Shown here: one piece after another, positions 19,524-46,437 of the stretch
Layout of the letters: each line of letters begins with the position of its first letter
Position numbering within the stretch: the first letter of the stretch is position 1
Source: Escherichia coli
GTDB lineage: Bacteria > Pseudomonadota > Gammaproteobacteria > Enterobacterales > Enterobacteriaceae
DNA length: 64,000 nt
Direction: 5' to 3' (one strand)
Assembly (NCBI RefSeq): GCF_003334335.1
Contig: NZ_QOWQ01000002.1
The notes under the pieces: generated by a model
Told to the model about the DNA's origin: nothing
Seen by the model: the letters and a program-made list of their open reading frames with translations, nothing else
Databases searched by the model: none
Translations under genes and position numbers: made by a program

Positions 19524-23588
<4,065 letters not shown>

Positions 23589-23733
23589 TGTTATCCCTCT
23601 GAAGTTCGTTTTTTACCATTTAGCCATAGTAAAAACATGAATTGTTTGATTTCGCGCATATTCGCTCATAATTCGAAAGTGAAGCGTGATTTCATGCGTC
23701 ATTTTGAACATTTTGTAAATCTTATTTAATAAT

Positions 23734-23749
23734 GTGTGCGGCAATTCAC
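23734..23749. promoter_or_regulatory. CRP-binding site (TGTGcggcaatTCACA) in the glpT/glpA divergent control region
   Basis: Near-perfect match to the TGTGA-N6-TCACA consensus between the divergent glpA and glpT starts. Confidence 0.7.
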
Positions 23750-23860
23750 ATTTAATTTATGAATGTTTTCTTAACATCGCGGCAACTCAAGAAACGGCAG
23801 GTTCTCTCACTGAATCAGGCTGTTAATCATAAATAAGACCACGGGCCACGGAGGCTATCA

Positions 23861-25219
23861 ATGTTGAGTATTTTTAAACCAGCGCCACACAAAGCGCGCT
23901 TACCTGCCGCGGAGATCGATCCGACTTATCGTCGATTGCGCTGGCAAATTTTCCTGGGGATATTCTTTGGCTATGCGGCTTACTATTTGGTTCGTAAGAA
24001 CTTTGCGCTTGCTATGCCTTATCTGGTTGAGCAGGGATTCTCACGCGGTGATTTAGGTTTTGCCCTTTCGGGGATCTCGATTGCTTATGGATTTTCGAAA
24101 TTCATCATGGGTTCGGTATCGGATCGCTCGAATCCGCGCGTTTTCCTGCCCGCAGGTTTGATTCTGGCGGCGGCAGTGATGTTGTTTATGGGCTTTGTGC
24201 CATGGGCGACGTCGAGCATTGCGGTGATGTTTGTACTGTTGTTCCTCTGCGGTTGGTTCCAGGGGATGGGGTGGCCGCCGTGTGGTCGTACTATGGTGCA
24301 CTGGTGGTCGCAGAAAGAACGTGGCGGCATTGTGTCAGTGTGGAACTGTGCGCACAACGTCGGTGGTGGTATTCCGCCGCTGCTGTTCCTGCTGGGGATG
24401 GCCTGGTTCAATGACTGGCATGCGGCGCTCTATATGCCTGCTTTCTGCGCCATTCTGGTGGCATTATTCGCCTTTGCGATGATGCGCGATACCCCGCAAT
24501 CCTGTGGCTTGCCGCCGATCGAAGAGTACAAAAATGATTATCCGGACGACTATAACGAAAAAGCGGAACAGGAGCTGACGGCGAAGCAAATCTTCATGCA
24601 GTACGTACTGCCGAACAAACTGCTGTGGTATATCGCCATCGCCAACGTGTTCGTTTATCTGCTGCGTTACGGCATCCTCGACTGGTCACCGACTTATCTG
24701 AAAGAGGTTAAGCATTTCGCGCTAGATAAATCCTCCTGGGCCTACTTCCTTTATGAATATGCAGGTATTCCGGGCACTCTGCTGTGCGGCTGGATGTCGG
24801 ATAAAGTCTTCCGTGGCAACCGTGGGGCAACCGGCGTTTTCTTTATGACACTGGTGACCATCGCGACTATCGTTTACTGGATGAACCCGGCAGGTAACCC
24901 AACCGTCGATATGATTTGTATGATTGTTATCGGCTTCCTGATCTACGGTCCTGTGATGCTGATCGGTCTGCATGCGCTGGAACTGGCACCGAAAAAAGCG
25001 GCAGGTACGGCAGCGGGCTTTACCGGGCTGTTTGGTTACCTGGGCGGTTCGGTGGCGGCGAGCGCGATTGTTGGCTACACCGTGGACTTCTTCGGCTGGG
25101 ATGGCGGCTTTATGGTAATGATTGGCGGCAGCATTCTGGCGGTTATCTTGTTGATTGTTGTGATGATTGGCGAAAAACGTCGCCATGAACAATTACTGCA
25201 AGAACGCAACGGAGGCTAA
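23861..25219 (+). CDS. glpT: Glycerol-3-phosphate:phosphate antiporter (MFS)
   Basis: 452-aa 12-TM ORF recognised as GlpT. Confidence 0.96.
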
Positions 25220-26334: not shown

Positions 26335-26341
26335 TCTCATA

Positions 26342-26548
26342 TCAAATTTTTCCAATCGCCACTAATTGTTCCATGCACATTTGTAGTAAAAACAGTGGAC
26401 TGCCTTCTACCGGCTTTTCTTTAGCCAGCAACGAAATCTGTCGATAGAAAGTTGGTTCGAGAGGAACGGAACACAATTCACCTGCAATGCTTTTCAGCGT
26501 TAACTCTGGTTGTAAGGCGATGCCTAATCCCTGTCGAATAAAATTCAT
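26342..26548 (-). pseudogene. yfaH: LysR-family regulator remnant (C-terminal fragment only)
   Basis: 68-aa ORF resembling the C-terminal co-inducer domain of LysR-type regulators; no HTH-containing N-terminal portion upstream. Confidence 0.7.
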
Positions 26549-26762
26549 CGCTGTATCCGCCTGATTAAATTCACATTTTATCTGCTGGGCGCACTATTAG
26601 TGGTAGTGGCTGGTGGAATCTATGCGCTGCAAATGAAGGGTAAAAGCGGTGTCAAGCTAGTAGTGGCAAAAGAAATTCATTAATACGACACGTTTCATTA
26701 AGATTTTCCTCAGGTAACCACCTATAGTCATTGTCGTTAATAAAAATGACAGGCGATAGGGT

Positions 26763-39590: not shown

Positions 39591-46437
<6,847 letters not shown>

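Follow-up and report, generated by a model that had tools for sequence, protein, structure and literature searches.

The glpACB and glpTQ operons of Escherichia coli are transcribed away from each other out of one short intergenic region, which raises the question of whether both operons are controlled from the same protein-binding sites or whether each promoter has sites of its own. A preliminary description, made from the sequence alone, had favoured the first answer: it recognised a divergent control region with a strong CRP site and nearby TTCG-centred motifs resembling half-sites of the GlpR operator, and predicted that the two operons share these sites. We have examined the region within a window of 64,000 nucleotides, the whole stretch of DNA that was analysed, by means of motif scans, published footprints and a comparison with related bacteria.

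Identity of the control region

The interval 23589-23860 is the exact gap between the ATG of glpA (at 23588, minus strand) and the ATG of glpT (at 23861, plus strand), and both the genes and the coordinates of the preliminary description were exact. The glpA gene (21960-23588, minus strand) was identified from the list of open reading frames, the translation of its N-terminus and its RefSeq name in an identical stretch. The glpT gene (23861-25219, plus strand), which encodes the glycerol-3-phosphate/phosphate antiporter and is the first gene of glpTQ, was identified from the same list and the RefSeq annotation. The gap between them measures 272 bp and has a G+C content of 37%, against 51% for the whole window. 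In the identical RefSeq stretch the gene order is glpC-glpB-glpA on one strand and glpT-glpQ on the other. For the same identical strain, RefSeq also annotates two pseudogene fragments between glpQ and inaA (window about 26340-26690), one from a LysR-family regulator (incomplete), the other from a hypothetical protein, and gives rpnE, beside glpC, as an ISNCY family transposase.

The interval and its flanks, 601 bp in all, are found at 95% identity or more, with glpA/glpT annotated, in 5,420 of 5,426 complete E. coli genomes. The control region itself (23589-23860, no strand assigned) equals positions 2,352,375-2,352,646 of K-12 MG1655 except for one base: 271 of the 272 intergenic bases are the same, and the sole SNP is at window position 23684, with G here and A in MG1655. 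An A also stands at this position in nearly all of the 36 Enterobacteriaceae compared below, and the SNP lies inside the conserved block GAAACGTGA, adjoining the TTCG repeats. The sequence ACGTTTCACTT of strain CFT073, which overlaps position 23684, is a predicted NsrR half-site (PMC5320621). The glpTQ-glpACB control region studied earlier in K-12 (Larson 1992, J Biol Chem 267:6114; Yang 1997, Mol Microbiol 24:511; PMC5352689) corresponds to this very locus, and the CRP and FNR footprint sequences reported in PMC5352689 occur verbatim in the window. The feature is thus the long-studied glpACB/glpTQ control region of E. coli, ordinary and already known. It was dissected in 1987-1997 and footprinted again in 2017, and it carries little weight as a discovery; what is mildly new is the comparative material only.

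For the comparison, 120 Enterobacterales loci were retrieved with a degenerate glpT coding pattern, 64 of which had divergent glpA and glpT. An alignment of 40 Enterobacteriaceae, 36 of them non-redundant, is the basis of the conservation values given here. An Rfam scan of the control region gave no family match and only sub-threshold noise, so that no RNA element explains its conservation. The observed sites are strongly supported by their position, their conservation in the 36 Enterobacteriaceae and the published footprints taken together.

The CRP site and the glpT promoter

At class II CRP-dependent promoters, CRP is centred near −41.5 and overlaps the −35 element. The CRP-cAMP site of the present region, TGTGCGGCAATTCACA (23735-23750, no strand assigned, centre 23742.5), occurs in one copy in the window and matches nine of the ten core positions of TGTGA-N6-TCACA. 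As a motif alone it is unremarkable window-wide, as three cores with no more than one mismatch were found in the 64 kb against 1.97 expected (about 0.008 expected per 272-bp interval). Among the 36 non-redundant Enterobacteriaceae, its two half-sites have conservation values of 0.93 and 0.91 and its 6-bp spacer one of 0.62; this retention of the half-sites but not of the spacer is the signature of a dyad contacted by protein. CRP-cAMP produces a DNase I footprint of 25 bp that holds AATGTGTGCGGCAATTCACATT and extends from −30 to −52 of glpT, overlapping the −35 element TCACAT (Kurabayashi et al. 2017, PMC5352689). Expression of glpT was undetectable in crp and cyaA mutants, and upstream FNR adds to it (PMC5352689). 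The core with a single mismatch, the conserved half-sites, the footprint and the crp/cyaA phenotype bear out the earlier view that a CRP site lies here, and the site is genuine.

When the numbering of PMC5352689 is mapped onto the window, the core promoter of glpT occupies 23746-23777 (plus strand), with the −35 element TCACAT at 23746-23751, the −10 element TAACAT at 23772-23777 and the start at 23782, or at the A at 23784. The −10 region has a conservation of 0.76, and its T and A positions reach at least 90%. The centre of the CRP core lies at −39.5 from a start at 23782, the paper's numbering, and at −41.5 if the start is 23784. In this respect glpT is like other class II CRP-dependent promoters: the core centre is 39.5-41.5 bp upstream, it overlaps the −35 element, and crp and cya are required. 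We conclude that glpT uses the CRP site, which overlaps its −35 element, in class II fashion. Among the Crp ChIP-exo units of Latif 2018, glpTQ is apparently listed, an entry on which we place no weight.

A generic sigma-70 scan proposed TTGAAC-N18-AATAAT (23704-23733); as the glpT promoter this candidate was rejected, its start falling inside the CRP site and clashing with the numbering of PMC5352689. The ribosome-binding region of glpT, GCCACGGAGGCT (23845-23856, plus strand), has a conservation of 0.93 in the 36 non-redundant Enterobacteriaceae, where the remainder of the 5′UTR has 0.45. It is conserved well past the GGAGG core, and CCACGG is doubled in E. coli (CCACGGGCCACGG).

The FNR box and the glpA promoter

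A scan for the FNR consensus at no more than two mismatches gave no site in the interval. The E. coli site emerged at three mismatches to TTGAT-N4-ATCAA combined with the comparison with relatives: it is the FNR box TTGATTTCGCGCAT (23646-23659, no strand assigned), identified by the footprint of FNR(D154A) and by homologous boxes in relatives. FNR(D154A) protects 70 bp in vitro, and the FNR-like motif is located at −123 to −136 of glpT (PMC5352689). The first TTCG motif falls within this box. The assignment of the TTCG motifs in the preliminary description was right as regards their likeness to GlpR sites, but it missed the FNR site, as the first of them lies inside the FNR(D154A) footprint. 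That description had also named motif scores as the check on the region, with FNR among the scans; the CRP site passes and the GlpR match stands at the level of the glpFK operators, but the FNR box, with its three mismatches, falls short of a simple consensus threshold.

Among the operons that Myers et al. 2013 list as activated by FNR are glpABC and glpTQ (Table S8, PMC3688515). In the same study, glpA and glpT had neither an FNR ChIP peak in the wild type nor a predicted FNR site, and a marginal FNR peak at the locus was listed for the delta-hns/stpA strain only (PMC3688515). Its cells were grown in glucose (PMC3688515), where GlpR would be bound, and this may be linked to the missing FNR peak.

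The top non-coding stretch in conservation is the block CATTTAGCCAYA (23617-23628; TGGCTAAATG on the minus strand), which has a mean conservation of 0.95 and is largely invariant in the 40 Enterobacteriaceae. This conserved block and its fixed spacing to the FNR box point to a putative extended −10 element of the glpA promoter, TGGCTAAAT (23618-23626, minus strand). The gap from the FNR box to the −10-like hexamer, CTAAAT in Enterobacteriaceae, is exactly 22 nt in 53 of 53 non-redundant Enterobacterales loci, and a TG usually stands two bases upstream of the hexamer. Despite this fixed gap, the glpA ATG lies at a distance that varies between 51 and 132 nt in the same loci. By itself, CTAAAT is a poor −10 element. 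The homologous FNR boxes have one mismatch in 23 of the 53 loci, two in 16, three in 13 and four in one. From the fixed 22-nt gap, the FNR box would be centred at −41.5 from a glpA start near 23611 (MG1655 2,352,624), and the glpA promoter would accordingly belong to FNR class II, its −10 element being of the extended type. The CRP site lies about 131 bp upstream of this predicted start.

A different start has to be weighed here. It would lie at about 23650 and use the −10 element GAATAT (minus strand, 23658-23663), so that 23641-23660 would be purely an operator over the +1 and FNR would act from CGTGATTTCATGCG near −41. Such a start accords with a presumed separation of 132 bp between the glpA and glpT starts, which would set the glpA start at about 23650 and CRP at about −90. 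The majority sequence ATATTC at 23658-23663 is conserved at 60-90%, but Enterobacter has GTTTAT or GTTTGT in place of GAATAT and thereby loses the key A at position 2. Similarly, the block 23685-23698 is conserved and lies inside the 70 bp protected by FNR, but 23686-23699 (GTGAT-TTCA-TGCGT) agrees with the FNR consensus at just 4 of its 10 specified positions. The spacing between box and TGnCTAAAT, fixed in 53 of 53 loci, and the near-consensus boxes of distant genera fit a start near 23611, and we regard the start at 23650 as quite improbable. Nothing usable on measured starts or binding sites of glpA and glpT was found in Kim 2012, Conway 2014, Federowicz 2014 and Latif 2018.

GlpR operators and TTCG repeats

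The operator consensus of GlpR, reportedly from work by Zhao et al. in 1994, is said to read WATGTTCGWTAWCGAACATW. This consensus was checked indirectly, on other glp operons of MG1655. At glpD it is matched without mismatch by TATGTTCGATAACGAACATT, 33-52 bp before the ATG, and a second site with six mismatches directly adjoins; at the glpFK promoter there are three matches with five to six mismatches, two of them directly adjoining. From these matches, the consensus is real, and genuine operators may differ from it at five to six positions and occur as 20-bp tandems. Secondary sources, as far as they cover the point, mention 4-8 GlpR sites per glp operon, many of them far from the consensus.

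In the present region, the GlpR scans gave a match with five mismatches, ATTGTTTGATTTCGCGCATA (23641-23660, no strand assigned), which is the joint-best in the window, has a conservation of 0.89 and holds the FNR box. With no more than five mismatches, two 20-mers were found in the 64 kb against about 1.3-1.5 expected, and about 0.006 would be expected in the interval. The other match with five mismatches is AATGCTGAATGTCGAACAAT, at 41335-41354. An operator-like 20-mer with six mismatches, GAAGTTCGTTTTTTACCATT (23601-23620, no strand assigned), spans the predicted glpA start, and its GTTCGTTT part is moderately conserved. The two sites are exactly 40 bp apart and hence in a 20-bp register. The other registers, 23621-23640, 23661-23680 and 23681-23700, have 13, 10 and 11 mismatches to the consensus, respectively. 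An arrangement of four clean, directly adjoining 20-bp operators was considered and rejected, just two registers matching the consensus. According to sources citing Larson 1992, the intergenic region has four GlpR operators and a repression loop is formed. The region resembles the operator arrays of glpD and glpFK in sharing the 20-bp palindromic consensus, to which the real sites there have 0-6 mismatches in directly adjoining 20-bp tandems. Unlike glpD, the window lacks a near-perfect operator such as TATGTTCGATAACGAACATT, the intervening registers are poor, and the best operator is also the FNR box.

The TTCG stretch TGTTTGATTTCGCGCATATTCGCTCATAATTCGAAA (23643-23678) occurs in one copy in the window. 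Overlapping it are three direct TTCG-centred units of 10 bp, TTCGCGCATA, TTCGCTCATA and (A)TTCGAAAGTG (23651-23681, plus strand), each of which resembles the GlpR half-site AWCGAACATW. The units start at 23651, 23661 and 23672, at a spacing of 10 and 11 bp, and have conservation values of 0.74-0.81; their majority sequences in relatives are TTCGAGCATA, TTCGAGCATA and ATTCGAAAATG. The repeat finder missed these TTCGnnCATA units, which offer it no exact 6-nt seed. A further conserved block, CGTGATTTCATGCG (23685-23698, no strand assigned; conservation 0.77), falls within the 70 bp that FNR protects and keeps to the 20-bp register of the operators. In relatives it reads TGATTTCGTGCG, repeating TGATTTCGnGC from 40 bp away.

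It could be argued that the TTCG repeats arose by chance in an AT-rich spacer and are not protein sites. When the intergenic region was shuffled 2000 times with its dinucleotides kept, 52 of the shuffles (2.6%) had three TTCG within 36 nt, and elsewhere in the window such clusters begin at six TTCG positions (in five places) and one CGAA position; the clustering alone is therefore only mildly unusual. However, the stretch has a conservation of 0.74-0.89 in the 36 Enterobacteriaceae, against 0.45 for the glpT 5′UTR, and it holds the joint-best GlpR match inside a published footprint. Its conservation effectively refutes chance, which we consider extremely improbable as an explanation. The earlier reading of the TTCG motifs as resembling GlpR half-sites is upheld by the joint-best match at 23641-23660 to a consensus that is perfect at glpD and has five to six mismatches at glpFK.

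The GlpR-like sites of the interval lie over the glpA promoter and are 120-180 bp away from the glpT start, on its upstream side; a register scan gave no consensus-like GlpR operator at the E. coli glpT promoter. Repression of glpT by GlpR must therefore act at a distance, and control of glpT by GlpR at a distance is also announced in the title of Yang et al. 1997. Weak GlpR matches with six to seven mismatches lie inside glpA, at 23195-23214, 22073-22092 and 22019-22038; the match near position 1497 of glpA is found again in 14 of 52 loci and is not separable from coding constraint. These internal matches might be distant operators of the kind to which the title of Larson 1992 alludes.

Related control regions

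The promoter of ansB is co-dependent on FNR and CRP. Distant Enterobacterales have a glpA region that is alike, with an FNR box with one mismatch at −41.5 and a CRP site 59-60 bp upstream of it; E. coli differs, its FNR box having decayed to three mismatches and its CRP site to TTGAACATTTTGTAAA. The homologous box TTGATAAnGAnCAA, with one mismatch to TTGAT-N4-ATCAA, was found in Proteus, Providencia, Moellerella, Dickeya, Serratia, Pectobacterium, Samsonia, Budvicia and Pragia. The glpA-side CRP site of the distant Enterobacterales, 59-60 bp beyond the box, has zero to two mismatches (zero to one in most genera), and what remains of it in E. coli is TTGAACATTTTGTAAA. These bacteria also have a separate glpT CRP site at about 150 bp from the FNR box, a distance of 90 bp in E. 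coli. The presence of a separate glpA CRP site in relatives argues for two distinct CRP sites ancestrally. The comparison of sequences thus suggests that the E. coli layout may be a degenerate derivative of a cleaner FNR and CRP layout that is kept in Proteus, Providencia, Dickeya and Serratia.

Several other features of the related regions were noted. In 12 loci of distant Enterobacterales the intergenic regions are longer (303-443 bp), and good GlpR-like operators, with three to four mismatches, occur in the glpT 5′UTR, where E. coli has none. Enterobacteriaceae other than Escherichia keep TGTCATAWWTCTGTAACAA (conservation 0.85) directly upstream of the CRP site (window 23714-23732), where E. 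coli and E. albertii carry TGTAAATCTTATTTAATAA; two TGTnA units, 11 bp apart, look like ArcA sites. In most relatives outside Escherichia, the glpA −10 element and the FNR box also enclose an inverted repeat, CCACA-N7-TGTGG; at the corresponding window position of about 23624-23643, E. coli has CCATAGTAAAAACATGAA, without the repeat.

Regulatory model

We conclude that the CRP site belongs to glpT and the operator/FNR cluster to glpA, and that there is no symmetric set of sites shared by the two operons; with the sites distributed in this manner, they are not used symmetrically by both. A single CRP site and a single set of GlpR half-sites, shared by the two promoters and controlling both operons alike, would be in keeping with promoters no more than about 170 bp apart. 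By their titles, moreover, Larson 1992 and Yang 1997 have GlpR operators over glpA affecting glpT, and a glpA start at about 23650 would set CRP at about −90, near a class I position. However, the CRP site overlaps the −35 element of glpT and stands some 131 bp away from the glpA start predicted from the conserved spacing, the operator-like sites are asymmetric and lie on the glpA promoter, and relatives have a CRP site of their own for glpA, 59-60 bp past the FNR box. A source citing Larson 1992 likewise indicates that CRP induces just one of the two operons. We consider symmetric sharing unlikely. Of the shared control proposed in the preliminary description, one part may stand, in that the GlpR sites may reach glpT at a distance; the CRP site, overlapping the −35 element of glpT and remote from the predicted glpA start, and the operators, being on the glpA side, do not conform to it.

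The model that we prefer, and consider very probable as a whole, has back-to-back promoters, with glpT as a CRP class II promoter, glpA as an FNR class II promoter and GlpR operators over glpA. The starts of the two promoters would be about 170 bp apart. CRP-cAMP bound at 23735-23750 switches on the rightward glpT promoter in class II manner, a step that is published (PMC5352689), and FNR would switch on the leftward glpA promoter under anaerobic conditions from a degenerate class II site, where binding in vitro is published and the architecture is predicted here. GlpR would recognise 20-bp operators composed of half-sites like TGTTCGAT. Its sites and the TTCG repeats, at about 23601-23700, would cover the glpA start, −10 element, spacer and FNR box. 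Without glycerol-3-phosphate, GlpR would thus occlude both RNA polymerase and FNR at glpA directly, and glpT would be repressed by GlpR solely at a distance. Secondary sources, where they touch on the region, describe GlpR as its negative and CRP as its positive control, and works citing Larson 1992 state that GlpR binds here and that glycerol-3-phosphate relieves the binding.

The outcome is a corrected map of the region, in which the CRP site is that of glpT and the TTCG cluster belongs to the glpA promoter, doubling as its FNR box. We further propose, tentatively and as a possibility that we still hold to be rather doubtful, that the region was rewired in Escherichia and Citrobacter: the FNR box would have gone from one to three mismatches while gaining TTCG, the glpA CRP site would have decayed, and about 60 bp between the CRP positions would have been lost. 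A single 20-bp element would then serve as both FNR site and main GlpR operator, and competition between GlpR and FNR would gate anaerobic expression of glpA. If this is true, such competition would explain why FNR is unseen by ChIP in the glucose-grown wild type. Expression of glpT sets the uptake of fosfomycin, and the CRP, FNR and GlpR sites of this region affect susceptibility to it.
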